Source: an uncultured Parachlamydiaceae bacterium (GTDB lineage Bacteria; Chlamydiota; Chlamydiia; Chlamydiales; Parachlamydiaceae). Taken from it: a stretch of DNA of 64,000 nucleotides. The stretch lies in NCBI GenBank assembly GCA_963742415.1, contig CAVULX010000003.1, forward strand, positions 672,001-736,000, written 5' to 3'. The translations under genes were made by a program, and so were the position numbers. A model generated the notes under the pieces. The model was not told the DNA's origin. It did not search any database and was given only the letters and a program-made list of their open reading frames with translations. How positions within the stretch are numbered: position 1 is the stretch's first letter; every line of letters begins with the position of its first letter. Shown here piece by piece: positions 12,205 to 64,000 of the stretch.

Positions 12205-13683
12205 TCATTTTTTGTGGTAAGTCGCTTTAATCCCGTTAGCATTGGTAAACTCTAGACTGTCAGGTCTAGTTTCGCAATTGAGAAAATCGATCATTAAATT
12301 ATCAAATAGAGTAAAAAATTTGCATTTGCTTGATGCGTACAACTGTATTGGGGGCAAGCCATTCTTGAAATCAATAAATAAATTTTTATCTACCAGGTTG
12401 ATTTCAAGTTGGTCTTCACCTTTTACATAATGTCCTTCAAAAAGGGCTAGGCCAGAAGGGTCAACGGATATCGTTTTCTTTTCAATGAGTTCAAAATGGG
12501 GCCATCGATAAGTATCTGCGATGCTATTCAGAATTTCTTCCATTAGAATCCATCCTGAATCATTATTTATCATAATGACGGCACCTTGACCTCGAAAAGC
12601 AAATCCAAAAAGGCGCGCGATAAACCCTTCATCTTGCCCTCCATGGCCAAAGGCTAGATCTTTTCCTTCATTCTCTAAAAATAGCCCAAGACCCGAATCA
12701 ATTTCTTTATCACTGATTTTTTGCCGGGAGATCATCTCTTTCACATAATAGGGACTGAGAGGCTTTGTTTTTTCCTCTTTTAATGCCGTTTGAATATAGA
12801 CGATAAATTGGGCTAAATCTTTCGGAGTGGTCCACAACCCAGCAGCAGCCATCTCAGGATAAACATGCCATTTATCTTCAACGGCGACTTGGTTTAAATG
12901 ATACCCATAGGCAGCATTAAGTGAATAAGAGGGTGGTAGTGGTTGCGCAAATGTACTTTAAGACATCCCTAACGGTTTAAGCACATTATTTTGCACCCAA
13001 ACATCAAAAGGTTCCCCTGTAATGTCTTCAATTAATAGTTGCACAATTGTTGTTCCACCTCCGGAGTACTTGAATTCCGTCCCAGGTTTAACAATCACTG
13101 TAACTGGATCGGTATTCACGAGGGGCTTTTTTCCGTTTAGGATCTCTATAATTGTAGGAAGTGTCGATTGGGCCGAATACCCAAGAAACCCATGGACACT
13201 AGTCCCTGCAGTATGGGAAAGCAACCGTCGTAAAGTCACTTTTTCCTTCTTTGTATATTCATTGTCTTGGACTTTCCATCTTTTTAAGCGCAGATTGACC
13301 TCTTCGTCCAAAGACAATTTACCCTGTTGAACAAGCAAAAGAGCTCCAAATGCTGTGATTGATTTGCTAATAGAACCCCCCTGAAATAACGTATGCTCAT
13401 CAATCGGAGCAGATTTAGGATCATCTGAAATGTGCCCGTAACCGCGAGTCCATTCGATTTTGCCATCATTAACAACGGCTAAGCTGACGCCTGAGACTTG
13501 ATAATGTTTCATCCTCTCAAAGATGTTCCCCTTATTGTGTGGAGCACCAGCAATTAGGACCTTGAGGCGCAAGCCATTCTCAACCTCAATTTCTTTCGCG
13601 TGTATAGTCTCACTGACCTCTGCGGAAAGTGTGCTCACAATAAAAGTACTAAAAATAAATAAAATGATGTTCATCTTGTACAT
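12205..13683 (-). pseudogene. Beta-lactamase-family (class C-like) serine hydrolase with an in-frame TAA
   Basis: Signal peptide, SISK, LLSHTAG, YSG, AAAGLWTT and GHGG motifs; both ORF halves share a frame and read LGMS*STFAQPLPP across TAA at 12958-12960. Confidence 0.85.
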
Positions 13684-14048: not shown

Positions 14049-14537
14049 ATGCAAACCGCTTCTGGTGTCTTTAATTTCAAAAACGGCCCATTTGAATATG
14101 GCCCTATCCCTCTTGACACTAATAGAGTCATAAGAAATGAAAGACAAATTCAATTTTCTCAAGATAAAAAAATTATTTCTAGTGATCACCCTTTAATAAA
14201 CAAATATCCTAATTTTTTCTCAAAATTTTTTCAGAATATGCCAAACGATCAATTGAGTATGACGCAAAGAAAAGAGGAAATTATGGCAAAAATAACCCCA
14301 TTTTTTAGGATCGGTTGCACCATAAAAAGTTGTACTGTTAACATATGCCCGATTAGCTATGAATCTGTTTTGCTTGGGGTTGCTTTTTTTGCCAACAACC
14401 AGCTCCTGGATTTAGATAAACTTCCACAAACTCCATTGCATATTGATGGGGATGAGGACTCTATTAATGGTAACCCTTTAAGCAATTTTGTCATTCCACC
14501 AGAGATAACCTCTGACACAATTTCGCTGAGGAATTGA
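14049..14537 (+). CDS. Hypothetical protein
   Basis: 162-aa ORF with an AAGGAG RBS and a downstream hairpin. Confidence 0.65.
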   Translation: MQTASGVFNFKNGPFEYGPIPLDTNRVIRNERQIQFSQDKKIISSDHPLINKYPNFFSKFFQNMPNDQLSMTQRKEEIMAKITPFFRIGCTIKSCTVNICPISYESVLLGVAFFANNQLLDLDKLPQTPLHIDGDEDSINGNPLSNFVIPPEITSDTISLRN

Positions 14538-14740: not shown

Positions 14741-17700
14741 ATGTCAAAATTAATTTTTACGCTAATTTTCCTTTTTTCTAGTCCGCTATTTGGAGCCAAT
14801 TCTCCCGCAGATTCATACAAAATGCCGGACTCCCTTTCCAATATGGAGGGGATCCCGTCATCGTTCGCTTACGGGTGTGTCAACGTGATCACAGGGGATT
14901 ATGTCGATGGGGAGACCGATATTGCTCTGCCGGGCATCGATCCTCTTACTCTCCAACGGTTCTATTCAAGCTCCTCAGGCGCTCGCGACCTGTCAGGCAT
15001 CGGCTGGAGCTTCAACCACCACGGATACGTCAGCGCCCATGTTCTCGAGGAAACCGAGAACTACTCCCAATATGGATACGATTTTTGCGACCACCGCGGC
15101 TCCAAGATGCATTTCATCCAAGACAGGATGGATTATGATAACCAACGTCCAGATATCAAGATCGATGAAACGGTCTTCTCAAAAGGGGTCACAAATTGCG
15201 GCGGAGGGGAGATAAGCGGCCGGACAAATTTAAAAAATATCCGCCTATACCATGGCAATCATGACTTGCATGCCACAGACGGCTCAGGCACAGATTACCG
15301 CTTTCAAAAATTTAAGAATATCCACAGAGTGCGCAAAATCGACCGGGTCAAACTTCCTAGCTTCAACCGCATCGTCTATGGCTATGATGAAAAGAGTGAA
15401 ACGTTGAAATCAATCAAAATGATCAACCGCGGCGGTTCCATCATCAGCTCTCTAAATATCTCCAAAGTCAAAGACGTTGAAAAGGAGGAATGCACCAAAG
15501 TAACTTCTAGCGATGGCAAAGAGGTTAAATACAAGTTCATCGACAAAAAACAAACTAAGCTTCTCGTCTCCTCTAACTTTTCTGCGCCCCTCGTTTATCT
15601 ATATGCAAAAGATGAAAAACAAAATCCTATTCACAAAATCATCCGTAAAGAGCTCCCTGAAGGAAGATATAAAAATATACAATACTTCGGCAAAAAAGAT
15701 AAAACCCTTATCAGAGGTCGTGTCGAGTCTATTCAGGAGCCGGCAGGAACCGACCAAACGCTTGTCACGACCGCTTCTTTCACTTATGAGCTCGATCCCG
15801 ACCGATGCCCCTATTCTAGAAAATATTCAGGAAAAACGCATGTCTTGGATGCCCTCCAACATAAAACGACCTACGCCTTTAATAATGAAGAAAGACTCAC
15901 CTCCATTCTCCGGCATGACAAAAATAACCGCGTTTATACTCAAGAGGATCTCTATTGGCGAAACAAAAAATTCCCTGAAAATACCTATCTCGCCGGACGC
16001 TCCCTCAAAACCGGCAGCGGCTTAACCCTTTTTTCTATCCATTTCGACTATAACCAGAACGGAAATATTATCTGCCAGACGTTGTATGGAAACCTCAAAG
16101 GCAACAATCAGGAGCCTCTTCTGATGGATGATTCCGGCATCCCCAAAAACAAAGCCAATAGCGATGAGCACAAGGTATCCTATACCTACACTGGCGGCGG
16201 CCGCAATCTTATGACCTCCGAAACCCACGCAACCTACAAAGTAGTCTACAAGTATCACAAGGAACAGGATGATCTTCTTGCCAAATTTATTCTCGCCGAT
16301 GGGAGCATACGTAAAAGGCATTTTTACGCCTACGACTGCAACGGCGCGATCACGCGGGAGATTGTCGACGATGGCAACACACAAAATGTGCATAACTTGA
16401 GCGGAGTCACCGAAAGGCAGATTAAGCATATTGTCAACACCTTAAACAACCCTTCAGGATTGCCAGAAATCATTACAGAGGCATACCTCGACCTTCAAAC
16501 ACAGCAAGAAGTCATTCTTCGCAAAACTAGAAATAGCTACGACATTCAAGGCAATATGATCTCGCAGGAGGTCTTTGGAGCAGATCAAAAGCATGCCTAT
16601 ACTCTGTATTGGGAATATGATGTACGGGGAAATGTTACCAAAGAGATTGATGCCTTGGGGCAGGTTTCTACCAAAAGGTATGACGCGAATAACAATTTCA
16701 TTTATGAACAAGGTCCCTGCCTTGAATATCATCATGAGTATGCTTACGATTTCATGGACAGGATGATCCGTAAAGAAAAAGTGGCTAACGATGGCACCCG
16801 CTGTGCTGAGACCTATCGGTACGATGTTTTAGGCAATAAAATTGCCAGCACAGACCGGCATGGCAATGAAACCCAGTACCACTACGATGAATTTAATCGT
16901 TTGACATCCACCTTATTGCCGCCGATTGCACTAGCTTCCGGAGAAATTGTGCGCCCCTCGATAATGCAGGAGTACGATCCGCTTGGCAACATAACAGTGC
17001 AAAGAACCGCAAATGAACAAACGCGTAAAAGCTATACGATCGGGGGAAAGCCCTACCTCATTGATCATGCCGACGGAACACAAGAAAGATTCCAATATCT
17101 GGCTAATGGCGACCTCAAAAGAGCCTACGCCAAAAATGGAACTCTGACCGTTTATTTCCACGACTATCAATCCCGTCCTGTCAAAATAAGCACTTATGCC
17201 GCCAGCGGCGAACTTATTGCTGAAAAAACTTACGTTTACAACGCCTTCCACCTCTTAAACGAGGTTGATGAATCAGGCTTGATAACTACTTATAGGTACG
17301 ATGGAGCAGGCCGACTCATCGAAACAAGGAAAGGAAGTCAAAGAACAGAACAGTTTTACGATGCTCTTGGAAGAGCTATGGAAACGCACGAATATGCAGA
17401 GGAAGGGAGATACATCTCAAAAATCAAGGTCTTAGATCTTCTTAACAAAATGGTTGAAGAACGGACAGAAGATGAGCAAGGGCGGGTCGCTAATCAAATC
17501 AACTACATCTACGATGCAGATGGCAATGTATCTCAGACAATCACCTATAATCAAGCCGGAGCTTCCACTGTTACCATCCGCTATAACATCTTTAAAGATC
17601 CGATAGAAGTCATTAATGCTAAAGGGGATCGGATTTTTACCACCTATGATTATTTTTATAAAAATAACTTAAACCAACGTGTTTGTTGTTCCCAGATGAC

Positions 17701-20215
17701 CGATTCGTTAGGGAATGTGACTATTTCTGTCAAAGATGCTTTGGGGCGGATTGTCAAAACGGAACGAAAAAATCCTTACGGGATCATAAATCAAAAGAAG
17801 GAAAACTTCTACGATCAGGCGGGGCATTTGGAATACCTGGTTGAAACGTTGTTCACACAAAATCTTGAAGTAGTAGATCAGGTCAAAACCCGTTGGATAT
17901 ATAATTCTAAAGGGCAATTAGCTTCCTTGATAGAAGCCGAAGGCACTTCTTTAGAAAAGCGGACGGGCTATGCATACAACGGTTTTGGTCAAAAAGAAAA
18001 AGATCTCAAGCCTGATGGGAGTTCGATCGAATATTTTTATGACCCATACGGCCGCTTGTCCGAGCGGAAAAGCTCAGATAGTACGATTCATGAATTGTAT
18101 AGCTATAATTCCCAACACAATCTCACCAAAGTGGAAGATCTTGTCTCTGGGCTGATCTCCTTAAAGGATTATGATGAAAATGGTTGGCTGACCCGTGAAC
18201 AACTCGGCAATGGTCTTGTTCTCCAGCATACCTATGACCCCCTGGGACGCCCTGTTTCGACTTTACTGCCGGATGGATCGGAAATCAATTACATCTACGA
18301 TGCTTGTCGAATGAAGGGGATCCACCGGAAAGATGTTCTTGGCAACATCCTGTATGTTCACACTTATGAGTCCTACGATTTGTCGGGTCATCCTACATCA
18401 GCCCAAATGATCGGAAATGCAGGTCAAATCCATTGGAACTATGACATCTTAGGAAGATTGCAAAGCATTGAAACGCCCCATTGGACAGAAAAAATGACCC
18501 TTTACGATGCCATGAGCAATCTGATCGAACGAAGCATCGAAGATCGGTCTGAAGTCGCATCTACCCAATATAGCTACGATGATCTGTACCAATTAAAAAG
18601 TGAACAGGGTCCTATCCAGCATCAGTATACACACGATTCCAGGTTCAACCGAACGTCAAAAGATGGTCAAAGCTACAGTGTCAATGTGTTAAATCAACTG
18701 ACGTCGGATGGAGAATGGCAATATGAGTATGACGCTTGCGGCCGGATGAGCGTTAAAAAATCGGCAAATGGGACATTTAGCTATGGATATGATGCTTTAG
18801 ACCGATTGACCACATTAACGTGCGGTAACGACCGGTATCAGTATATTTACGATTCTGAGAATCGCAGGATCAGCAAAGAACACTATGTCCAGGGTGGAAA
18901 TGGCCTCTGGCAACTGATGTCGAAGGTGAACTTTTTTTACGATGGGCAAAACGAAATTGGGGCTTGTGATACATCGGGTGCTATCGTGGAATTGAGAATA
19001 TTGGGAGAGGGAAAAGGGGCTGAAATTGGAGCTGCTATTGCGATTGAAATAGGGGATCAGACCTATGCTCCGCTGCATGATCACAACGGTAACGTGATGG
19101 GTTTGATCGACAGCCAAAGCGGGCAAGTTTTAGAGACCTATCAATATACCGCTTTTGGCCAACAAGAAAGCACCCCTTCGCTATATAATCCTTGGAGATT
19201 TTCGAGCAAACGGCATGATGAAGAAAGCGGCCTCATCTATTTTGGAAGAAGATATTACGATCCCGCTATCGGCCGTTGGATTACTCCCGATCCGATAGGC
19301 TTTGATGGAGGGCCCAACTTATATGCCTATGTATTAAACAATCCTCTTACTCATATCGACTTATATGGTTTAGAAGAGGCCATCGAAACAATCACCCGCC
19401 ATGAAGAAAACCGTTCGAACAATGTTTTTGCAAGAATATACCGAGGATTAGGGAGATTTCTTCGAACCCTTGGCGATCATGCGATTCCAATACCCTATGT
19501 GCACGACGGTATTTCCTACTTAGGCCATCGGATGGCAGGAGGAACACATAAAAACTTCCGCCCGATCTGCCGAAATGGGCCTTCCCGTTATCACCACTTG
19601 CATAAGCCTGAGCTGTTTGACTCAGTGCGCATCATTTATGTAAATGGGATGTTAAATAACAAACACGATTGCTATGGAGGAGCTGAATTTATTTCAAAAT
19701 GCTATGGAGATACAAATGTGCATTACTTGTTCAATACTTCACATGGTTTCAGTTTAGATGTAGGAGAAATCATGCTTCAAAAGTTAGGATTTAGAACCCG
19801 TGTTGTGGATATGCTGGTAAAAAATATTCAGACGCATATCCGCTCTTTAGGTGGCGTAAAAAGTGACGGATGTATTATATTGTATGGGTCTAGTCAAGGT
19901 GGATTGGTCATAAAAAACGCTTTAAAGCATTTGACTCCTGCCCAGCGCCACATGATTTCTGTAGTTACGTTAGGCTCTGCTTCGCTGATTACGGGTAAGG
20001 ACTTGAAAAGCTATAGAAATTATGTAAATTCTTGCGATCCGATCCCTATTTTTGGGGACCCATTAGGCTTTGTCAAAGGGATGATTACAGGAGATGGATT
20101 TCATATCTTGAAATCAAAATCCTCTTGGTTCGATCATTCGATCGATAGTGAAAATTATCGTTCTGTAATAAGAACTCAAGGCTTTGAATTTATGAAGGAG
20201 CAAGGAAACAAATAA
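14741..20215 (+). CDS. Rhs/YD-repeat polymorphic toxin with Sec signal peptide and C-terminal alpha/beta-hydrolase (DUF687-like) tip
   Basis: MSKLIFTLIFLFSSPLFGA leader; VNVITGDY...LQRFYSS...GWSFNH (DUF6531-like); many YDxxG repeats; core end RYYDP...PDPIG...NLYAYV.NNPLTHIDLYGL; 280-aa tip with GSSQG, DPIP and DHS. Confidence 0.92.
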   Translation: MSKLIFTLIFLFSSPLFGANSPADSYKMPDSLSNMEGIPSSFAYGCVNVITGDYVDGETDIALPGIDPLTLQRFYSSSSGARDLSGIGWSFNHHGYVSAHVLEETENYSQYGYDFCDHRGSKMHFIQDRMDYDNQRPDIKIDETVFSKGVTNCGGGEISGRTNLKNIRLYHGNHDLHATDGSGTDYRFQKFKNIHRVRKIDRVKLPSFNRIVYGYDEKSETLKSIKMINRGGSIISSLNISKVKDVEKEECTKVTSSDGKEVKYKFIDKKQTKLLVSSNFSAPLVYLYAKDEKQNPIHKIIRKELPEGRYKNIQYFGKKDKTLIRGRVESIQEPAGTDQTLVTTASFTYELDPDRCPYSRKYSGKTHVLDALQHKTTYAFNNEERLTSILRHDKNNRVYTQEDLYWRNKKFPENTYLAGRSLKTGSGLTLFSIHFDYNQNGNIICQTLYGNLKGNNQEPLLMDDSGIPKNKANSDEHKVSYTYTGGGRNLMTSETHATYKVVYKYHKEQDDLLAKFILADGSIRKRHFYAYDCNGAITREIVDDGNTQNVHNLSGVTERQIKHIVNTLNNPSGLPEIITEAYLDLQTQQEVILRKTRNSYDIQGNMISQEVFGADQKHAYTLYWEYDVRGNVTKEIDALGQVSTKRYDANNNFIYEQGPCLEYHHEYAYDFMDRMIRKEKVANDGTRCAETYRYDVLGNKIASTDRHGNETQYHYDEFNRLTSTLLPPIALASGEIVRPSIMQEYDPLGNITVQRTANEQTRKSYTIGGKPYLIDHADGTQERFQYLANGDLKRAYAKNGTLTVYFHDYQSRPVKISTYAASGELIAEKTYVYNAFHLLNEVDESGLITTYRYDGAGRLIETRKGSQRTEQFYDALGRAMETHEYAEEGRYISKIKVLDLLNKMVEERTEDEQGRVANQINYIYDADGNVSQTITYNQAGASTVTIRYNIFKDPIEVINAKGDRIFTTYDYFYKNNLNQRVCCSQMTDSLGNVTISVKDALGRIVKTERKNPYGIINQKKENFYDQAGHLEYLVETLFTQNLEVVDQVKTRWIYNSKGQLASLIEAEGTSLEKRTGYAYNGFGQKEKDLKPDGSSIEYFYDPYGRLSERKSSDSTIHELYSYNSQHNLTKVEDLVSGLISLKDYDENGWLTREQLGNGLVLQHTYDPLGRPVSTLLPDGSEINYIYDACRMKGIHRKDVLGNILYVHTYESYDLSGHPTSAQMIGNAGQIHWNYDILGRLQSIETPHWTEKMTLYDAMSNLIERSIEDRSEVASTQYSYDDLYQLKSEQGPIQHQYTHDSRFNRTSKDGQSYSVNVLNQLTSDGEWQYEYDACGRMSVKKSANGTFSYGYDALDRLTTLTCGNDRYQYIYDSENRRISKEHYVQGGNGLWQLMSKVNFFYDGQNEIGACDTSGAIVELRILGEGKGAEIGAAIAIEIGDQTYAPLHDHNGNVMGLIDSQSGQVLETYQYTAFGQQESTPSLYNPWRFSSKRHDEESGLIYFGRRYYDPAIGRWITPDPIGFDGGPNLYAYVLNNPLTHIDLYGLEEAIETITRHEENRSNNVFARIYRGLGRFLRTLGDHAIPIPYVHDGISYLGHRMAGGTHKNFRPICRNGPSRYHHLHKPELFDSVRIIYVNGMLNNKHDCYGGAEFISKCYGDTNVHYLFNTSHGFSLDVGEIMLQKLGFRTRVVDMLVKNIQTHIRSLGGVKSDGCIILYGSSQGGLVIKNALKHLTPAQRHMISVVTLGSASLITGKDLKSYRNYVNSCDPIPIFGDPLGFVKGMITGDGFHILKSKSSWFDHSIDSENYRSVIRTQGFEFMKEQGNK

Positions 20216-20721
20216 TGAAATTAATATCTGTTTTTTTATTATTGCTGGTTTTTAATCTAGCTTGCACTGTTATGTCAAACGACCAAAGTATTGCCCATTC
20301 TGTAATGCATTCGTTTGGTGAACAACAAACTAAAACTAATGGGTTGACTCTTTTAGGTCTTGGAGGATCGTTTTATGACAAAGTATCTATACTTGATCTT
20401 CATTTCTATTCAGATCGAGCTTTAACTGTGGAACAAGTTCGAGGACTTTACATTTCTTCCACTCAGCAGTTGTTGCAAATGGTCAACACCAATTGTAAAA
20501 TTCGACCTTATTTAAGAAATTATCCATTCAATGAAAATAATTTAAAATTTTCTATATCCTTTTATTCTAAAGATAATGGTTTCTTAGAATATCCTGCCGT
20601 AGCGCATGTTTTTCTTCTCAACGGTAAAATTAGCTATAACTATTACAACAACAAAGAGCAGAAGTTTATCGATGGTCCTATTGAAAGCTATGCGGATGCG
20701 CTAAAAATTGTAGGACGTTGA
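20215..20721 (+). CDS. Predicted lipoprotein, candidate Rhs immunity protein
   Basis: TAATG coupling to rhs; MKLISVFLLLLVFNLAC lipoprotein-like signal; 168 aa. Confidence 0.7.
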   Translation: MKLISVFLLLLVFNLACTVMSNDQSIAHSVMHSFGEQQTKTNGLTLLGLGGSFYDKVSILDLHFYSDRALTVEQVRGLYISSTQQLLQMVNTNCKIRPYLRNYPFNENNLKFSISFYSKDNGFLEYPAVAHVFLLNGKISYNYYNNKEQKFIDGPIESYADALKIVGR

Positions 20722-54097: not shown

Positions 54098-57000
54098 TTA
54101 TAGATCGCAAAAGAAGAATTGTGCCGGAACTTCCCAACAGGGCAGCAGAATAGGTACACACCAATGCACATCTTCTAAGAAGTCTGTCAGGAAGTAGTAA
54201 TCACTAGCCAGATTAAATTGTGAATCATAGACGCCAATGACCGCAAACACATGGGTCCCTTTTAATGGTTTAGGTGGCGGCGGCGGTGGTGGAGGAGGCG
54301 GAGGAGGAGGGGGCGGCGGAGGAGGTGGCGGGGGTGGAGGCGCTCCACAATCCTTGATCTTAACTCCATTGAAAAAAATCACGCATGGGGGATTCGGTGC
54401 ATAGGCATGGACAGTATTATCTATCGACGTACCGTTAAAGTCTGCTAAATCTACACCTCCCGCTATAATTTGTTGGGGTGTATTGACAAGGATCGGGCTG
54501 GAAAGACTTCCTACATTCCCATCGAGAGCGTTAAAGAAGGCAGTATTGGCAGAAACAACGTCGACAGGCCCACCCGCATTGAGGATTGAAGTTTGTGAAG
54601 TAAAGGAAGGGTTGACTAGATTCATCGGTCCGTTCAGTACAACGGACCCTGCGTTTACAGTAACCGTATTGATAGTGCCAACATTTGATAAAGTTCCCAA
54701 AAAGGCAAGACCTGATCCCGTATTAATTGTTATGTTTTCAAAGTTAGTGCCTTGTATCGTGTTGAATGAAAATTCCCCATTATTAGTCTCCACTAACAGG
54801 TCGGATCCACTATTAAGGTGTGTCACTGGGCTCGCAAAGGCGATAGATCCCCCATTAGTAAGAAGAGTCGTAAGTCCAGGATTGACGAAATCGGTGTCGG
54901 CTCCAGATGAATAAGTTTGCGTATGCGCAGCATAGATGGTATTCAAAAGAGAAATTGTATTGCTCGCCGTAAGACTAAGAGTTCCACTCATGATTACATT
55001 TGGAGATCCTATGCCATTTAAAGAAATATCGTGAGCTGAGGCGACTGTAAAATTCTGCAAAGGGATCGATGTCGAAAATGCAGTTGGGACATTAACATCG
55101 CCCATTCCCGCTGTGATAGAAATAGAATGGGTCCCTTCTAAGTCAGTTCCTAAAATGATATTTCCATTGCCTGAATTGAGGGTGAGATCCCCTGTCAGAG
55201 TAATCGGCCCTGAGAAACTAATATCATTTCCGCTAGTAGACAGATTACCGCCGATATTTGTAGTGCCAAGCCCCGTTTGAGTGAAAGGTCCGCTGAGTGC
55301 AAGCGTCAGATTGGGAAGGATAGTTAAGGAAGCCGAGTTCGTAATCGCGAATTTACCGCCGCCCGATGTTGTCACGTTGTCGTTGAGGGAAAATGAGGCA
55401 CCGCTGAGGGTGATGCCGGAAGCCCCTGTGGTGTTTAGAGCTCCATGGAAAGTTACGAGACCGGAAACACTTTCGATGTCGATCACGGAGGCGTTGATGG
55501 CATTGGATGTGAAAGCAGTGCATTCAAGGACTTGGAAAGTAGCAAGCGGGGTTGTTCCTCCCACATCACCTGTCAGAAGGATCGATCCTGAACCGGCATC
55601 GAGTACAAGATTATTCAATCCGTTGACCGTATTTGAAAGGATAATAGAGCTGCCTAAACCGTTGAGGTCAAAGAGAGAAGATCCAGTTAAAATGATAGGC
55701 CCGGTAAATAAAATTTGATTGCCTTGCACTTGAATAGTTGTATCAAGAGAAGTAGCCCCTTGGCCATTCTGACTAAAGTTTCCTGCTAAATTAATGGGAG
55801 CAGAGCTTAGAAGAGACAATGCGCCTGAGTTGTTTATCGAAAGAGAGCCGATACCTGTAGTTGTGACTAGGGCATCGAAGGTAAAGTCTGTGCCTGTGAG
55901 GTTTATGCCGCTTGGAAGAGTTGTCGTTAACGCTCCGTTGAAGGTTGTCATTCCATCGCCCGAATTTTGGATGATGAACCCAGCTGAGATAGCTTGAGTC
56001 GAAACATTGTTTGCTGTCGTAATAGTCAGTGATGATATCGGGGTCGTGCCTCCGATATTTGCCGCAAGGGTTAAATTTCCTGTACCGGCAGTATAAACTA
56101 GATCAAAGGGCCCATCAATTGTGTTAGAGATGAGAATATCACCTCCACCGTCACTATTCAGAGTTGTTGCACCCGTCAGGGTAATCGGATTGGCAAAAGA
56201 GATGTTCGCGTTGTTTGCGTGAATTGTGCCCGCAAGGTTGACTGTGCCGCCCGTTCCACTTTCTGTGAAAGGGCCTGCGATAAGAGTCGAGGTTCCTGCA
56301 TTTAACGATAATAATCCAGTATGAGTGATTGCACAGGGACCGCTATTTGTGGAAACAAGAGAACCTGTAAGGGCAAAGTTGGTACCGTTCATGTTGATGC
56401 CGGAAGAACCATTCGTATCGATATTCCCTAAAATCGTTGTGGTTCCGGAACCCACGTTCTGTGTGATAGAGGCTGCGGTAATATCAGAAGTTGCGATGTT
56501 GCTTGCTTGGGAAAAAGTGATAGCGCCAAGACGAGATGAGCCTCCAACCATGCCTTGAATACTAATAGAACCTGAGCCTGCATTGAATGTAATGTTTCCG
56601 GGTCCATCGAGAGTGCTTTCAAGGGTGATTGGGCTGGCAGCTGAAGTAAGTGATGCTGTTCCAGAAGCACTGACAGGCCCCGAAAGACTAATCGAGCTTG
56701 ATGAATTAAGCGAGCTGCTAAGAATAGAAGCTCCGGCTCCGTTCTGAGTAAATGCGCCGGAGGAGCTACAAGCATTGGAAAGGGTGAAAAGGCCCGAATT
56801 GGAGATCGCTATAGGGCCTGAAGCTATCGTCGTTACAGGTCCAGTAAATTCGAAATTGTTTCCCGCCAATGAAATGCCGCTTAAGGTACTGCTGTTGACC
56901 ATTCCGGCCAAAATCGTTGTACCTGATCCTCCGACTTGGGTGATTGAAGCCGCATTGATTGCAGCTAAAGTTGCATTATTCGTTTGTGTGATGGTCAAAG

Positions 57001-60000
57001 CATTTAAAGGAGCAAGAGATCCAATCGAAGCTGCAGTGGTAATATTGCCTGTACCGCTATTTAATGTGAGGTTTTGGGTGCCATCGACTAAACCATTGAA
57101 GGTGATATTTCCTGCACCGGATCCGCTATTCAATGTAGTTGCAGCTGCAAGAGTGATAGGGCCTGTGAACCCAATGGCTGCATTGCTTGTCAGCGCACTT
57201 CCCCCGATAGACACAGGGCCTATGCCTGTCTGATTAAACGGCCCTGCCGATTGAATTACTCCTGGAGCAATGGAAGTGAAAGTTCCGGTGTTGGCCACAG
57301 TAATGCCGCCAGTACCAGCCGCCGTCCATGCAGCATCTCGAATTATATCAGTTCCTGTAAGATTGATACCTAAAGAGCCGTTGGTCGTAATTGCACCGTT
57401 AAAAGTCGACGTATTAGAGCCGCTAATTTGGGTGACCGAAGAAGCGGTAATTGCTTGGGCCATGACATTTGCAGCTGAATTTATGGTGATATCTCCTAAA
57501 GGAGTCGTGCTTCCGAGAGGTGAACTCAGAATAATATCGCCAGTTCCGGCAGTGAAGTTAAGAGAGGAGCCTCCATTAACCGTCCCGGATAAAATGATAT
57601 CTCCGCTTCCGGCTCCTGTATCGAATCCTCCCCCGGCAAGGAGAGTAATGGGGCTTGTGAAGGAGATGTTGTGGTCATTGGTGGTGATCGTTCCGGCGAA
57701 AAAGACAGGACCTGTTCCATTTTGCGTATAGCTGCCGTCAATGGAAGTTGTGTTGATGGAAGTACCAGTAATGAACCCCGAATTGGTCACAGTAAAATTG
57801 CCTCCGCCCGTCGTGATTAAAGAGCCGCTTCGAATAAAGTTTACCCCTATCAGAGTAATCCCTGCAGAACCGCTTGAACTGAGATTTCCAACAATCTGCA
57901 TGGTTCCTGTGGCTGTTGCATTCAGGGAGTTGCAAGCAAAGTTCTGGATCGAAATATTTCCTGCGCTAGCCACTGTCGTTGAACCGAGCGGCGTAATTCC
58001 CCCCGCATTCGCTAAGAGAGTGATATTCCCGTTACCTGCTCTTAACGTCCAATTGCCCGCTCCATTTAAGGTGTTAGAAAAGGTGATCGCTTGATTGTTA
58101 CTCGAGGTGTCCATTAAACATGTGCCCGATAACACAACGGGACCTGCAAAGGAGATCCCCCCTTGGTTCGGTGTGACAGAACCTGAAAAATTCGTAGAAC
58201 CTGCGCCATTTTGAATAAACGATCCATCTGGGTTTGCAGTCCCGGCAAAAGTAAATAGGCCGCTATTGTGGACGGTAATGGAAGAACCCGTCGTTGTTTG
58301 AATCGAACCGCTATTTTGAACATTTAGGTTCGTTCCTGTGAACTGAAATCCGATATTATTCACAATAGATACAGCACCTGAAATTGTGGTTGTCCCAGAA
58401 CCTGCTGATTGAATTAACCCATTGACAGCCATATTCCCGATAGAAACATTTCTTGCACTCGAGATGGTTAAAAGGTTTGGACGCACCAGAAAATTACTTC
58501 CGACAGATCCCGAGAAGGTAATATCGCCCGTGCCTGCAGCAAGAGTGAGGTTTTGTGTGTCGGGCGAGGAGCCGTTAACGGTACTAGAAAACGTGATATT
58601 TCCTCCGGCACCCGTTGAAATGACAGAATTGGTGTTGAGCACAACAGATGAAGGGAATGTAAGAGGATTATTGATGGTGGCAATATTACCGCCCACATTG
58701 AGTGTCGAAGAGGGAGCTAGCGAAATCGAATTTGCAATTAGAGCGCCTCCTAGTGTTAAATTTGCACCTGACAAAGAAGCTGAGGCAAATTCTCTATCTG
58801 CAGCAAGACCAATGGCCCCCACTTGGATATTGCCGGATCCGCTAGAAAGGACCAGGTTCCGGCCGCTATTTTGGCCGGCTCGGATCGAAAGAGTAGTTAA
58901 AATGCCGCCAGCTGTATTGAGTGTTAAGTCTGTTCCTGTTCCGAGATTGACAGTTCCATTTTGGAAAGAGAGGTCAGCGCCATTTGAAGAGATCGTCGTC
59001 AAAGCGCCGCTATTCATATTAAATTGTGTGGGAGCATTATAAGTTTGAGCACCGGCATTGTAAGTGGTGCCATTGAATTGAATGGCGCCGCTGGCTGTTA
59101 TTAATGTATCTCCGGTGATACCCTGAGAGGCTCCGCCCATATTGGAAAGTGCAATCTGATTTCCAGTGATTGTCAAAGAAGAAAGGGGAGTGGAATTACC
59201 GATCGGTTGTGTGATCGAGACATTCCCCCCACCTGCCGTAATCGTGAAGGCGTGAGCTCCGTCGACAGTATTTGCGATTGATACGCCTCCTGTACCACCG
59301 CTGGAATCCAGGGCCACATCTCCTACTAACGTAAAGGGGCTAATGATCGTAAAGCCGCCGTTCGCAGAGATTACTCCTCCCAGGTTAACTGTACCTGTAC
59401 TACCGGGGAGCTGCTTCCACTGCCCATCAATATTAGATGTATTGCTCTGAGTTCCGGTTATAGCACCTGAATTGAGGAAAACTAGACTTCCTCCGTTTGT
59501 CGTTACCAAAGAACCCTGTCTAAAGAATTTGTTTCCTGTGAGACTAATACCTTCAGGACCATTTGTATCGAATGTACCGATCAATGAGAATTGGTTGGTC
59601 AAAACCTGTTGGGTGAAGGAACTAGCTTTCACAGTGGCAAAATTTGCATCATGAGCGCTAACGATTAAAACATCTCCTAGACGAATATTTGCTCCGATAT
59701 CTCCGGTAACATTAATGTCACCAGCGCCTGCTATCACGGTAAACGGAAATGCCCCATCAACGGTATTGGAAAGGGCTATATTTCCAGATCCAGCGCCGCT
59801 GTTCAAGGCTGCAGCTGCAGTGAGCGTAATAGGCCCTGTAAAAGAGAGATCTTGATTTGCTGTTTCAACCGTTCCGGCTAAAGATACAGCGCCGCTTCCA
59901 GTTTGACTAAAGGCACCCGTTGAAGAGAGAGTTTGACCTGAGAGTGTAAGGGTTCCTGTGTTGGCAATCGAAAGTGGGCCTGCCGATGTGGCGCTCCCAA

Positions 60001-63000
60001 TAAGAGTAAAGGCAGTTCCTGTCAGGTTAATGCCGCTGAGACCATTGGCGGTAAGATTGCCATTGAATGTGCTAAGGCTGGAACCCAAGGTTTGCGTAAT
60101 GGAGCCAGCTTTAATGTCTTTAGTAGAAACAGCTCCTGCGCTATTGATGGTGAATGCTGTCAGGCTTGTGCCAACCCCAATATCAGATGAAAAGGTGAGG
60201 TTTCCTGTTCCAAGTGTGCAGGTGAGAGAACCAGGACCGTCGACAGTATTCAAAAACTGGATGGAACTGTTATTGGAAGATGAATCTATTGTCGCTATTC
60301 CTGAAGCAACGACGGAAATAGGCCCCTGGAAAGAAACCGAGTTCCCGGTTGCAAGTGAACCCTGGAGGGATACAGCGCCTGCTCCATTTTGGATAAAAGC
60401 GCCGGCAATATGAAGATTTGCAGATGGACCAAAGGCTAATGTGCCTGAGTTCGTAACATTCATCCCTGCTCCGGTACTCATAGAAGTCGTTGTCACCGAG
60501 CCGTTGACTACAAAACTGATGCCAGTCAAACTGATACCGGCGACACCATTGGTATTGATGTTACCAGCAAAGGTCGTTGAGTCGCTCCCTAATTGAGAGA
60601 TCGCTGCGGCGGTAACATCTCCAGTAGTGACATTTTCAGCAGAGTTGATCGTCAGCGTCCCAATTCGAGTTCCTCCTCCGACGGCGCTGCCGAATGTAAT
60701 GTTTCCTTCACCTGTAGTAAGGTTCAAATCATTTGCACCATCAACAGTGCCTGTGAAACTGATACTTCCTGAGCCACTACCTGTATTCAACGTTGTAGCT
60801 CCCGTCAAGGTGATAGCACCGCCAAAAGAAATATCATCATTCGATGTTGAGATCGATCCGCTTAAAGAGGCTGCTCCACCACTTTGGATAAAGCTTCCAT
60901 CAGCTTGTATCGATGCTCCTTGAGTCCAAGTGCCGGCATTTGCAATGGCAATTGGCCCTTCACTCGAAGTGGTGAGGGAGCCATTTTGCACTATCGTTGT
61001 CCCCGTCAATGAGATGCCGTTGGAACCGGAGGCGTTCATAGGTCCCGAAATGAGAGTCGTGCCAGAACTTTCCTGTTGTTCGATAGAAGCAGCAGAGACA
61101 CCTTGATAGGTAATGTTTGCTGCATTTTGCACGGTAAATGAATTTAAGGAATCTTGGTCGCCCACGTTGTCTAAAAATAAAAGATCTCCTGTTCCCGCAA
61201 TCAAGTTGAGGTTGTGAACTCCATTGATCTCGCCGTTAAACGTGAGGTTACCGGCTCCCGAGCTATTTGATATCACTGTTGTCCCCGCTAAATCCACAGG
61301 GCTAGCAATCGAGATCGCTCCCCCTGTCGTGAGAAGAGTGCCCGAAAGAGCCACGCTGCCGCTGCCGCTTTGGGTAAATGATCCAGAAATCGAGGAGCTT
61401 GGTCCACCTGTAAGGGTCAGTTGGCCGCCATTAGAAATCGAGACCGCTCCCCCCGACGTAGTAACAAGATTTCCGTTGATCGAGAATGTGATGCCTGTAA
61501 GAGAAATGCCCCCTGCAAGGCTCGTATTTAGAGAACCGAGAGCCGTGGTTCCTGAACCTGCTGACTGTGTAATCGTTGCTGCTGTGATGTTTTGAATCGT
61601 CACATTCTGGGCATTATCAATCGTGAAGTCGCCTATTTCAGTAATTCCCCCAATATTTCCAGCTATGAGTAGATCTCCAACTGTGCCTAAATTGAGTTCC
61701 AAAGAGCTTGAGCCATCGATTGTGCTGGAGAAAGTGATATTCGTCGAGTTAGCGGAAGTATCAAGAACTGCCAGATTGGCGAGGGTTGCCGCCCCAGCAA
61801 AAGAGATATTCCCATTTGCTGTGATGCTACCACCCAGCGTTACCGCCCCATTGCCCGACTGACTGAATGCACCATCCACGGAAAGTGAAGCTGCACCTCC
61901 TAATGCTAATGTTCCAGTATTGGTGATTGCAATAGGACCTGATGCAGTTGTTACCATGCTATTGTTCACTGCAAACGCATTGCCTGTAAGTTTAATTCCG
62001 CTCACAGAATTAACATCAATCGCACCATCAAAGGTCGTCGTGCCAGTTCCGGCAACTTGTGTCAAGGAAGCAGCACTAACAGCCCCTGTGGCGACATCAC
62101 CCGCACTTTCTATGGTGATATTACCGACCCTTGCCACGCCTCCAATGCTACCTGAGAAAGTAACATCTCCAATTCCGGCGGTTAAATCGAGATCGTAAGG
62201 TTGATCCAGTGTATTCAAAAATGTTATATCTGCTCCTGTTAAGCTCACAGTGTTGATCGCTAAGTCACTACTCAAATCAACAGCTCCAGCAAAAGAAACA
62301 ACATCATCGGTCGTTTGAATATTTCCGCCAATCGACACACTTCCTGCGCCAGTTTGCTGGAAGGCTCCATCAAGATTGAAGACTGCCCCGTTTCCCGTAA
62401 AAGTGCCGGAATTATTGAAAATGGCTGGAGCTTCATTTGTGGTGAGTGTAGATCCCGCGACCGAAATATTGTTTGTCTCGATATTGATTCCTCCCGCAAT
62501 GGCTTCGATTCCAGCAGAGATTGTCGTCGTGCCAGCACCATTCGTTTGTGACAAAGAACCCACAGTCATTTCCTGGCTGATGATTACATCTTGACCCGTC
62601 CCGATAGAAAGTGAAGTCAGAGGAACAGAATTACCAACCAACCCATTAAATGTTAATGAGTTTCCAGTCCCTGGATTGATTGTTACATTGCGGCTTCCTA
62701 CTCCGTCTCCATTGACAATGTTGTTGAATATAAAGCTTCCTCCTGAAAAGACAATATTATCTGCGGTGATCACAACAGGAGAGTTGTAAGTTAGGGGGCC
62801 AAGCTGATCTGTGCTTATAAAAGTAATCGTTGGAGACTGAAAGACAGGGGCTGTTGTTGAAAAAATGGGATCTGGGTGGTTGATGGTGCCGCCGGTGATC
62901 GTCACACTATTAACATCATTCCCCGAGGTTCCGATCTGAGCCACCGTCACAGTTCCCAAAATAGCGTCGAGAGTGATATTCTGCCCGGGCCCTGTAAGAT

Positions 63001-64000
63001 TTGTCAAAGTAATATTACCATTATTGCTATCGACCGTAAAATCAGTACCCGTGCTCAAAGCAATTGTCCCTGTGTTAAATGCAATCGCACCGCCACCCGA
63101 TGTAATAGTAGTCGGAGCTCCTGATGTGTAATTGAAGTTGAAGCCTGCCGTATAGTTTTGGGCGCCTCCTGTATAAGTAGTTCCTGTAAAATTAATAGCA
63201 TCGGTCGCACTGATTGTAAGATTTCCAGTAGAAGCGGAAGGGGAGGTACCGAAATTAGCAAGCGTCACGTCTTGGCCGCTGATCGAAAAAGTTGTCAAAG
63301 GGATAATTCCTCCGATCGTACCACCTAAAGTCACACTTCCCGACCCGGCTGACAGAGTCAGATTTCTTCCTGAAATATCCCCATTAATTGTTCCTGTGAT
63401 GGAAATATCCCCGCTACCGCTCCCGCTGCTCAAAGTGATATTGTTCGTCGTTGTTCTGGTGACATTACCTGTGATCGTGATATCGCTATTAGTCGTTGTA
63501 ATGTTTCCGCCCAGGTTCACTGCACCTGTCAAAGCAACTGCAGAAGAGGTTGTAATTGCCGCCGGTTGGATGATAGAGCTGGCTGTAGCCGAGAGGCAGT
63601 TAAGGGGGGTGGTACCTCCGAGCTGATTCAAAAATTGAATGGTTCCTGTCCCTGCAGTTAAAGTTAAGCAATAGGGGCCATCAACTGTATTGGAGAAGAG
63701 GATGTTACCAATACTTGCTCCAGTATCCATCACTACGTCGTGGGTCAGTGTAATAGGATCTGCCCAGCTTACATTGTCATTTGTCGTGGTGACATCTGCA
63801 CCTAATGAAACGAGGCCACCTCCAGATTCTGTGAATGGGCCATCGATTGAAATTGCTGAACCAAAAGGAACCGTTAGAGTACCTGAGTGAACAATCGAAA
63901 GCGGCCCGCTGTTCGTTGTCGTCACAGTAGAGTCAAATGCAACTTGATTAGCAGAAATTGAAATCCCTGTTCCTCCCGTCGTAGATAAAGCCCCGCCAAA
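54098..64000 (-). CDS. Giant repetitive beta-helical adhesin-like protein (>3300 aa; 5' end outside the window)
   Basis: Frame stays open to 64000 (FGGALSTTGGTGISISANQVAFDSTV...); G/T/S/N-rich with about 18 copies of a (D/N)G...L.L.AG.G.I.F motif; no C-terminal autotransporter barrel. Confidence 0.88.
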   Translation of the reverse strand, partial: FGGALSTTGGTGISISANQVAFDSTVTTTNSGPLSIVHSGTLTVPFGSAISIDGPFTESGGGLVSLGADVTTTNDNVSWADPITLTHDVVMDTGASIGNILFSNTVDGPYCLTLTAGTGTIQFLNQLGGTTPLNCLSATASSIIQPAAITTSSAVALTGAVNLGGNITTTNSDITITGNVTRTTTNNITLSSGSGSGDISITGTINGDISGRNLTLSAGSGSVTLGGTIGGIIPLTTFSISGQDVTLANFGTSPSASTGNLTISATDAINFTGTTYTGGAQNYTAGFNFNYTSGAPTTITSGGGAIAFNTGTIALSTGTDFTVDSNNGNITLTNLTGPGQNITLDAILGTVTVAQIGTSGNDVNSVTITGGTINHPDPIFSTTAPVFQSPTITFISTDQLGPLTYNSPVVITADNIVFSGGSFIFNNIVNGDGVGSRNVTINPGTGNSLTFNGLVGNSVPLTSLSIGTGQDVIISQEMTVGSLSQTNGAGTTTISAGIEAIAGGINIETNNISVAGSTLTTNEAPAIFNNSGTFTGNGAVFNLDGAFQQTGAGSVSIGGNIQTTDDVVSFAGAVDLSSDLAINTVSLTGADITFLNTLDQPYDLDLTAGIGDVTFSGSIGGVARVGNITIESAGDVATGAVSAASLTQVAGTGTTTFDGAIDVNSVSGIKLTGNAFAVNNSMVTTASGPIAITNTGTLALGGAASLSVDGAFSQSGNGAVTLGGSITANGNISFAGAATLANLAVLDTSANSTNITFSSTIDGSSSLELNLGTVGDLLIAGNIGGITEIGDFTIDNAQNVTIQNITAATITQSAGSGTTALGSLNTSLAGGISLTGITFSINGNLVTTSGGAVSISNGGQLTLTGGPSSSISGSFTQSGSGSVALSGTLLTTGGAISIASPVDLAGTTVISNSSGAGNLTFNGEINGVHNLNLIAGTGDLLFLDNVGDQDSLNSFTVQNAANITYQGVSAASIEQQESSGTTLISGPMNASGSNGISLTGTTIVQNGSLTTSSEGPIAIANAGTWTQGASIQADGSFIQSGGAASLSGSISTSNDDISFGGAITLTGATTLNTGSGSGSISFTGTVDGANDLNLTTGEGNITFGSAVGGGTRIGTLTINSAENVTTGDVTAAAISQLGSDSTTFAGNINTNGVAGISLTGISFVVNGSVTTTSMSTGAGMNVTNSGTLAFGPSANLHIAGAFIQNGAGAVSLQGSLATGNSVSFQGPISVVASGIATIDSSSNNSSIQFLNTVDGPGSLTCTLGTGNLTFSSDIGVGTSLTAFTINSAGAVSTKDIKAGSITQTLGSSLSTFNGNLTANGLSGINLTGTAFTLIGSATSAGPLSIANTGTLTLSGQTLSSTGAFSQTGSGAVSLAGTVETANQDLSFTGPITLTAAAALNSGAGSGNIALSNTVDGAFPFTVIAGAGDINVTGDIGANIRLGDVLIVSAHDANFATVKASSFTQQVLTNQFSLIGTFDTNGPEGISLTGNKFFRQGSLVTTNGGSLVFLNSGAITGTQSNTSNIDGQWKQLPGSTGTVNLGGVISANGGFTIISPFTLVGDVALDSSGGTGGVSIANTVDGAHAFTITAGGGNVSITQPIGNSTPLSSLTITGNQIALSNMGGASQGITGDTLITASGAIQFNGTTYNAGAQTYNAPTQFNMNSGALTTISSNGADLSFQNGTVNLGTGTDLTLNTAGGILTTLSIRAGQNSGRNLVLSSGSGNIQVGAIGLAADREFASASLSGANLTLGGALIANSISLAPSSTLNVGGNIATINNPLTFPSSVVLNTNSVISTGAGGNITFSSTVNGSSPDTQNLTLAAGTGDITFSGSVGSNFLVRPNLLTISSARNVSIGNMAVNGLIQSAGSGTTTISGAVSIVNNIGFQFTGTNLNVQNSGSIQTTTGSSITVHNSGLFTFAGTANPDGSFIQNGAGSTNFSGSVTPNQGGISFAGPVVLSGTCLMDTSSNNQAITFSNTLNGAGNWTLRAGNGNITLLANAGGITPLGSTTVASAGNISIQNFACNSLNATATGTMQIVGNLSSSGSAGITLIGVNFIRSGSLITTGGGNFTVTNSGFITGTSINTTSIDGSYTQNGTGPVFFAGTITTNDHNISFTSPITLLAGGGFDTGAGSGDIILSGTVNGGSSLNFTAGTGDIILSSPLGSTTPLGDITINSAANVMAQAITASSVTQISGSNTSTFNGAITTNGSLGINLTGTDIIRDAAWTAAGTGGITVANTGTFTSIAPGVIQSAGPFNQTGIGPVSIGGSALTSNAAIGFTGPITLAAATTLNSGSGAGNITFNGLVDGTQNLTLNSGTGNITTAASIGSLAPLNALTITQTNNATLAAINAASITQVGGSGTTILAGMVNSSTLSGISLAGNNFEFTGPVTTIASGPIAISNSGLFTLSNACSSSGAFTQNGAGASILSSSLNSSSSISLSGPVSASGTASLTSAASPITLESTLDGPGNITFNAGSGSISIQGMVGGSSRLGAITFSQASNIATSDITAASITQNVGSGTTTILGNIDTNGSSGINMNGTNFALTGSLVSTNSGPCAITHTGLLSLNAGTSTLIAGPFTESGTGGTVNLAGTIHANNANISFANPITLTGATTLNSDGGGDILISNTIDGPFDLVYTAGTGNLTLAANIGGTTPISSLTITTANNVSTQAISAGFIIQNSGDGMTTFNGALTTTLPSGINLTGTDFTFDALVTTTGIGSLSINNSGALSLLSSAPINLAGNFSQNGQGATSLDTTIQVQGNQILFTGPIILTGSSLFDLNGLGSSIILSNTVNGLNNLVLDAGSGSILLTGDVGGTTPLATFQVLECTAFTSNAINASVIDIESVSGLVTFHGALNTTGASGITLSGASFSLNDNVTTSGGGKFAITNSASLTILPNLTLALSGPFTQTGLGTTNIGGNLSTSGNDISFSGPITLTGDLTLNSGNGNIILGTDLEGTHSISITAGMGDVNVPTAFSTSIPLQNFTVASAHDISLNGIGSPNVIMSGTLSLTASNTISLLNTIYAAHTQTYSSGADTDFVNPGLTTLLTNGGSIAFASPVTHLNSGSDLLVETNNGEFSFNTIQGTNFENITINTGSGLAFLGTLSNVGTINTVTVNAGSVVLNGPMNLVNPSFTSQTSILNAGGPVDVVSANTAFFNALDGNVGSLSSPILVNTPQQIIAGGVDLADFNGTSIDNTVHAYAPNPPCVIFFNGVKIKDCGAPPPPPPPPPPPPPPPPPPPPPPPKPLKGTHVFAVIGVYDSQFNLASDYYFLTDFLEDVHWCVPILLPCWEVPAQFFFCDL
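54272..54340 (-). repeat. 23 consecutive proline codons
   Basis: Counted from the DNA; all four Pro codons are used. Confidence 0.95.

Follow-up and report, generated by a model that had tools for sequence, protein, structure and literature searches.

An Rhs protein with a likely signal peptide, an alpha/beta-hydrolase tip and a translationally coupled, putative immunity protein in an uncultured Parachlamydiaceae bacterium

The window, which is the whole stretch of 64,000 nucleotides analysed here from an uncultured Parachlamydiaceae bacterium, includes two ORFs, at 14741-20215 and 20215-20721, that are joined by the stop/start overlap TAATG (Table 1). The 1824-aa product of the first ORF is an Rhs protein of polymorphic toxin architecture: it matches the Pfam RHS_repeat model (E 6e-49), and its residues 1469-1544 match the NCBIfam model TIGR03696 for the Rhs-associated core. 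A Pfam search found no PAAR or VgrG domain in this ORF, and the N-terminus carries DUF6531 instead. The core terminus reads DPIG-x19-DLYG followed by L, beyond which a coding span of 19373-20212 specifies the tip. Self-cleavage of Rhs proteins maps to a core-end motif of this DPxG..DxxG type, as outlined in a recent preprint (10.1101/2024.02.26.582050). The YD repeats, the N-terminus without PAAR or VgrG, the core end with its 280-aa tip and the TAATG overlap with a 168-aa gene had all been made out in an initial annotation from the letters alone, and the domain searches and ORF calls agree with it on each. GC content drops along the locus: 44% in the core, 41% in the tip, 33% in the partner gene.

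Table 1. Features of the Rhs locus (window positions) and related loci of the same genome (contig positions)
Feature	Position	Strand	Basis or remark
Rhs/YD-repeat protein, 1824 aa	14741..20215	+	ORF call, Pfam/NCBIfam domains
Likely Sec signal peptide, about 18 aa	14741..14794	+	Sequence; cleavage site judged by eye
DUF6531 N-terminal domain, residues 47-97	14879..15031	+	Pfam match
Rhs-associated core with DPIG (D1517 at 19289) and DLYG (D1540 at 19358)	19145..19372	+	NCBIfam and motifs; autocleavage after GL inferred
Alpha/beta-hydrolase tip, 280 aa, Tox-ABhydrolase-2 type	19373..20215	+	Motifs, fold model, relatives
Predicted catalytic residues of the tip	S174 at 19892, D222 at 20036, H255 at 20135	+	
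Terminal helix of the tip, the chief surface predicted for partner binding	20150..20212	+	Highly variable across relatives' cassettes
Partner, 168 aa, exported, probably lipidated (Cys17), putative immunity protein	20215..20721	+	
S1, single-copy conserved lipoprotein paralogue of the partner (L268)	C3:579128-579850	-	Same genome
Short clade-B copy L269, 354 aa	C3:568547-569620	-	Same genome
Third, shortened tip homologue L270, HSQG, without Rhs core or partner	C2:154884-156365	+	Same genome
Five further Rhs loci, L271-L275	C3: 984-995 kb, 872-883 kb, 357-366 kb, 758-767 kb, 589-595 kb		Same genome

The source genome (2.69 Mb, 84% complete) contains five other matches to this core, with 58-61% identity and each with a different tip. 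The N-termini at these loci are mostly of the leader-peptide type, the tips are short and unrelated, and four of the five loci are fragmented; Imm53 genes are located at two of the five.

The leader of the Rhs protein, MSKLIFTLIFLFSSPLFG, resembles a Sec signal, and a hydrophobic N-terminus was scored in 39/46 full-length relatives among the matches listed, by a heuristic run without a negative control. Export of the Rhs protein by Sec is thus likely, judging from the leader. None of the T6SS markers VipB, PAAR and VgrG was found in the 84% complete genome, in which controls were detected, consistent with the earlier proposal of a T6SS-independent polymorphic toxin. That proposal had also pointed to a T2SS encoded nearby. 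A T2SS cluster is indeed present upstream of the Rhs gene, with its near end about 12 kb away, but the adjacency appears coincidental as far as tested: in 0/5 relatives was it conserved, the partner-linked Rhs gene being >200 kb from any secretin or on another contig. Linkage to the T2SS was therefore dropped as evidence for the export route.

The tip was modelled by AlphaFold2 from a 47-sequence alignment as an alpha/beta hydrolase (pLDDT 92). Among solved folds, a cutinase (Z 13.4, rmsd 3.3, 163 aligned), carboxylesterases, dienelactone hydrolases and acyl-protein thioesterases come closest, with no clear winner; the Legionella effector RavL is also among the fold neighbours. The initial annotation had called the tip lipase-like from GxSxG, D and H in alpha/beta-hydrolase order, here GSSQG (S174), DPIP (D222) and DHS (H255). 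The order of the motifs stands, as S174, D222 and H255, together with G92 and D129, are invariant in 54 partner-linked and 80 clade-B tips (defined below) among the matches listed, and such complete conservation argues that it did not arise by chance. Partner-linked tips average merely 26% identity among the matches listed, and the triad is nonetheless kept. The lipase label holds at the level of the fold only, and a profile search with the tip reaches a lipase at E 9e-4, with weak Lipase_3 matches in 8/47 tips; the nearest folds are, however, cutinases, carboxylesterases and acyl-protein thioesterases. Because the partner is exported, the substrate might be an ester or lipid of the envelope.

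The toxin domain had been catalogued before. The Tox-ABhydrolase-2 entry of Zhang 2012 (PMC3482391) lists the motifs NG, [DE], [KR], HSxG, D and H, RHS proteins as carriers, an occurrence in chlamydiae and signal-peptide ("T2SS") export. The corresponding residues of the tip are N91-G92, D129, K137, S174-x-G176, D222 and H255. When compared with the authors' table, the query has the same motifs and the same Rhs carrier, has a leader that resembles a signal peptide, and differs in reading SSQG for HSxG; the residue before the catalytic serine is His in 80% of the partner-linked relatives among the matches listed. These observations support assignment of the tip to the serine hydrolases of the Tox-ABhydrolase-2 type, with catalysis predicted from motifs and model. 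Both the domain and its chlamydial, signal-peptide Rhs context stand in that catalogue (PMC3482391). The catalogue entry draws no specific tie to lipases, pairs the domain with Imm-SUKH immunity and gives the chlamydial copy without immunity, proposing host targets for it (PMC3482391); here, in contrast, an exported partner adjoins most tips of two classes.

These classes emerged from a survey of the phylum. Matches to the tip are found in 263/401 sampled genomes, including 45/45 of the source's own family and 1/30 of a second family, f4, and matches to the partner in 286/400; one genome (G005) lies outside the scored set. The locus survey covered 148 non-own loci from the 150 tip matches listed, with 382 further matches beyond these. 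A tip tree, built without one short tip (L198), splits off a clade B (support 0.92) which comprises, among the matches listed, 79 loci in 78 genomes with 44% mean identity. The 68 loci outside it among the matches listed form class A, to which the query tip belongs, and DxxG is present in 61/62 class-A cores in this set. Comparison of the tips, proposed in the initial annotation, showed diverse tips in class A and conserved ones in clade B among the matches listed. Where at least 500 nt of downstream sequence was present (leaving out 4/68 class-A and 6/79 clade-B loci), the partner adjoins 53/64 class-A tips versus 0/73 clade-B tips among the matches listed. Selection by partner first gave a similar picture, with a tip within 1.5 kb upstream at 24/29 non-own loci, 21 of those with an Rhs core.

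Among the matches listed, 11/64 class-A tips are without this partner. Downstream of three of these (L103, L107 and L164) lies another small protein, exported or a lipoprotein, which might represent a second immunity family. Clade B is nearly always single-copy and is present in 28/150 genomes; in the matches listed, a metallo-beta-lactamase-fold gene neighbours 30/79 clade-B loci and the Rhs core is lost in 23. Many clade-B lineages appear to be shedding the Rhs shell. The short clade-B copy in the source genome itself consists of a leader peptide, a short remnant and an intact hydrolase, is devoid of Rhs core and partner, and adjoins a metallo-beta-lactamase-fold gene. In another genome (L094 / L023, on G300:C2), a clade-B tip is fused to a C-terminal domain of ~450 aa with kinase-like motifs, as judged by eye.

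The partner, described as lipoprotein-like in the initial annotation, has an exported-type leader with Cys17 and a non-canonical lipobox, FNLAC. Among 60 family members, 27 fit a relaxed lipobox pattern and 15 the strict one; the majority of the remainder carry a simple hydrophobic leader, which points to an exported family with lipidation in many members but not in all. It matches no Pfam or NCBIfam family, and no SUKH or other Imm Pfam domain is found in 58 partners. The partner model is confident (pLDDT 95.5). No clear match emerged from a search of solved folds, in which the best hit is of the CamS type (Z 7.5, rmsd 3.3, 95 aligned), and Foldseek with the partner returned nothing at E 0.001, which is not proof of a new fold; no solved complex resembling the tip-partner pair was found for the partner. 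Its profile matches 4213 clusters at 50% identity, which carry no taxon labels, and tandem copies, 2-4, occur in many of the best 150 of these clusters. Word-indexed homologue searches, which are nearly blind, returned 0 matches for the tip, 3 for the partner and 3 long forms; a partner scan of named genomes gave no match, and no plasmid match was found for the tip. A literature search, beyond whose reach lay subscription papers and the PMC3482391 supplement, found no description of the family. The partner therefore represents a large, apparently undescribed, immunity-like chlamydial family, and it probably neutralises the tip.

Two paralogues of the partner reside in the source genome. S1 occurs in 23/150 genomes, all 23 of which also hold a clade-B tip, a coincidence confounded by shared lineage; the second, S2, has no conserved orthologues (6/151 weak matches). 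S1 sits away from any tip, suggesting that the partner fold has other uses; it might, for instance, serve clade-B tips as a partner in trans.

Co-folding of tip residues 55-280 with partner residues 18-168, an experiment suggested in the initial annotation, gave an ipSAE of 0.85 versus 0.01 for the best of three controls; the ipSAE mark, a rough guide here (own alignments), was reached by 116/157 solved and 2/215 mismatched pairs. The runs agreed at 63% or more, with a partner pLDDT of 88 or higher. In the predicted complex, the confident interface places tip residues 209-218 and 264-279 on a face of the partner sheet, and S174, D222 and H255 lie outside the confident contacts, so that the model by itself does not make inhibition evident. 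Covariation at the 25 best contacts (mean z 0.81; 85 relative pairs and the query, sequences partly the same as those behind the fold) exceeds two nulls that keep relatedness, one entropy-matched (0.20, 9 of 10000) and one with permutation within the same columns (0.09, 2 of 10000). The strongest covarying pairs are not enriched at the interface (1/30 versus 0.62 expected), and the interface columns are also variable in the partner-less clade B (entropy 2.6 versus 1.77 background, among the matches listed). Overall, the modelling supports a partner that docks on the terminal helix of the tip and not at its catalytic residues.

Genomic arrangements in relatives bear on the same helix. Class-A loci with partner arrays number 15 among the matches listed; arrays in relatives hold 2-5 partners with pairwise identities of 23-98%. 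Orphan pairs, a search for which the initial annotation had proposed, were found in several relatives as tip fragments, mostly the tip 3' end, followed by a partner; the query locus itself contains no array or orphan cassette. In eight hand-picked comparisons of cassette DNA from five loci, identity is near 90-100% up to a conserved TY motif and then falls in the terminal helix at L050 (108/108 before to 27/48 after TY), L263 (96/108 to 22/48), L264 (first half only) and one L258 pair (101/108 to 23/48). The sharp fall is absent in L248 and in another L258 pair, and is gradual in two other comparisons; at L258, one 98% identical partner stands behind two helices merely 33% alike. With these exceptions, the pattern fits exchange of helix and partner together as a specificity module.

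The pair has likenesses to several known systems. WapA-like Rhs toxins are composed of a YD shell, a DPxG[LWF] motif and a swappable tip. T6SS-associated Rhs toxins likewise combine a YD shell, a DPxG[LWF] cleavage motif and a swappable tip, as set out in the preprint on their cleavage (10.1101/2024.02.26.582050). The query differs from both in lacking PAAR in a Gram-negative-type intracellular bacterium. In the Tle/Tli pairs of T6SSs, a serine hydrolase with GxSxG precedes a partner that is periplasmic or a lipoprotein (PMC9860674), as here, but for the query no VgrG, PAAR or T6SS was found, the Rhs container has a leader, and the partner falls outside any Pfam or NCBIfam family and matches no solved fold above Z 7.5; phospholipase activity is not implied by the likeness.

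The initial annotation had further proposed that the tip recalls the DUF687 family. The PF05095 (DUF687) model matches neither the query tip nor its genome (positive control, 5/5 f4 genomes); this result, the intact triad and the soluble end helix rule out membership of the query tip. A link nevertheless exists through a sister subfamily. PF05095 scores above cut-off in 58/400 genomes, 23 in f4 and 35 elsewhere, and full-length DUF687, a family described as Chlamydia proteins, is carried by 1.0-1.3 Mb genomes of the same order as the source genome, which is therefore probably that of an environmental chlamydia. Outside f4, matches are confined to the N-terminal ~200 model positions and lie for the most part on Rhs tips and in ORFs 1600-1940 aa long. 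Among the best 27 of 55 such matches, which represent the C-type tips (class C), the ORF also encodes an Rhs core in 21, a partner is adjacent in 22 and a nucleophile-elbow pattern is present in 25. Alignment of the query tip family with the N-terminal domain of DUF687 by hhalign gave P 73.5% and E 3e-5 over 145 columns, indicating homology of that domain to the tip family. In a tree of a 49-row subsample without an outgroup, DUF687 falls among the C-type tips as a long branch, and the split from classes A and B has a support of 100/99; an AU test did not reject DUF687 with clade B, at a borderline p of 0.052, and one DUF687 tree left out eight DUF687 ORFs without the anchor motif.

The DUF687 proteins of Chlamydia (the CT326, TC0600 and CPn0066 group; PMC3048545, PMC11878206, PMC6013670) were already known to combine an alpha/beta-hydrolase domain that is inactive with a membrane bundle. 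CT326 is among the putative Inc (inclusion-membrane) proteins of this family, and its orthologue TC0600 has been tentatively tied to gut colonisation (PMC6013670). Unlike the query tip, which ends in a soluble helix, they lack catalytic residues, an Rhs core and a partner, and end in the C-terminal membrane bundle. Because PF05095 matches a sister subfamily of active-type tips with the same partner, CT326/TC0600 and their relatives likely descend from C-type Rhs tips, as judged by sequence comparison; the change would have run from an active tip to the dead DUF687, since catalytic residues are more likely to be lost than gained. A literature search, limited to sources other than subscription papers, found no Rhs origin of DUF687 described. 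DUF687 may thus be regarded as a disarmed toxin tip, in which binding of a lipid or ester may persist. Within f4, the family to which the DUF687-bearing genus belongs, one genome (G157) retains a fragment of a tip next to a partner (L044).

The catalogue of 2012 thus already covers the toxin domain in its chlamydial Rhs setting. The partner family is apparently undescribed, and the locus further brings a predicted exosite binding and a probable evolutionary link to a protein family of pathogenic Chlamydia. Taken together, the data are best read, with a probability of roughly 0.65, as an Rhs polymorphic toxin in an antibacterial role: the serine-hydrolase tip is intact, and the translationally coupled partner is predicted to bind the tip and likely neutralises it. 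The antibacterial role is preferred because arrays of partners, like orphan cassettes, imply that toxins of non-self origin exert selection. Sec would move the Rhs protein into the periplasm, from which it might exit by a non-T6SS route, most plausibly a T2SS, to the inclusion or host compartment. The tip would be freed by the core aspartyl protease and would cleave ester or lipid bonds in the envelopes of neighbours, mainly other chlamydiae in the same host cell. The partner, anchored in the membrane, would dock at an exosite consisting of the C-terminal helix and strand 209-218, and not at the catalytic residues, blocking the tip allosterically or sterically. New specificities might arise by joint swapping of the last helix and the partner, which would explain both the orphan helix-partner cassettes and the divergent partner arrays.

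A host-directed effector, with a tip directed against membranes of the host or the inclusion, or one that removes acyl groups from host proteins, and a partner that merely guards the producer's envelope during export, is rather unlikely. Such a function would suit the obligate intracellular lifestyle suggested by the order, fold neighbours such as acyl-protein thioesterases and RavL, the triad retained by partner-less clade B among the matches listed, and DUF687 descendants that are putative inclusion-membrane proteins; host targets were also the proposal for the partner-less copy in the catalogue entry (PMC3482391). Self-protection, however, leaves the divergent arrays, the orphan cassettes and the 4213 partner clusters unexplained, and these point to non-self selection. 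A partner acting as chaperone, activator or membrane anchor, which would make the pair a surface-tethered esterase instead of toxin and antidote, is improbable: the predicted interface away from the catalytic residues, a reported immunity protein that activates its phospholipase (10.1101/2023.03.28.534661) and the lineage-confounded company of S1 and clade-B tips are in its favour, but S1 lacks the Gly-Gly strand predicted to touch the tip, and fast paired turnover and multi-copy arrays are unexpected for a chaperone. That a generic chlamydial lipoprotein family simply rides with Rhs loci, as standalone paralogues and the passive carriage of the tip 3' end by tandem duplication of an overlapping gene might suggest, is very improbable in view of the near-exclusive position next to tips of this family in different subfamilies, the strong predicted complex and the contact-specific covariation.

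A broader reading may be offered tentatively, at less than even odds: toxin warfare across the phylum among environmental chlamydiae in host cells, waged with Sec-exported Rhs esterases whose specificity is reset by a terminal helix and a new-fold antidote, the domain having been domesticated twice, as the partner-less enzyme of clade B and as the dead CT326/TC0600 linked to gut tropism. Zhang 2012 stated that intracellular bacteria such as Waddlia have many toxins and hardly any immunity genes, and hence do not compete with kin (PMC3482391); an immunity-like family as widespread as the partner's in chlamydial genomes challenges that view. In symbiont-mediated host defence, the mechanism is stated to be unknown and resource competition is favoured (PMC6520448). 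The tip-partner pair is a testable candidate for superinfection exclusion and for such defence.

Three other features of the window may be mentioned. At 54098-63925 (-), a 3275-aa protein has a weak DUF5649 repeat match as its sole domain match, and at 12205-13683 (-), a beta-lactamase-family serine hydrolase is apparently broken into two ORFs. A 162-aa ORF at 14049-14537 lies just 5' of the Rhs gene; as a 34% identical homologue is located 3' of the partner in the closest relative (G319), this ORF may travel with the Rhs locus.
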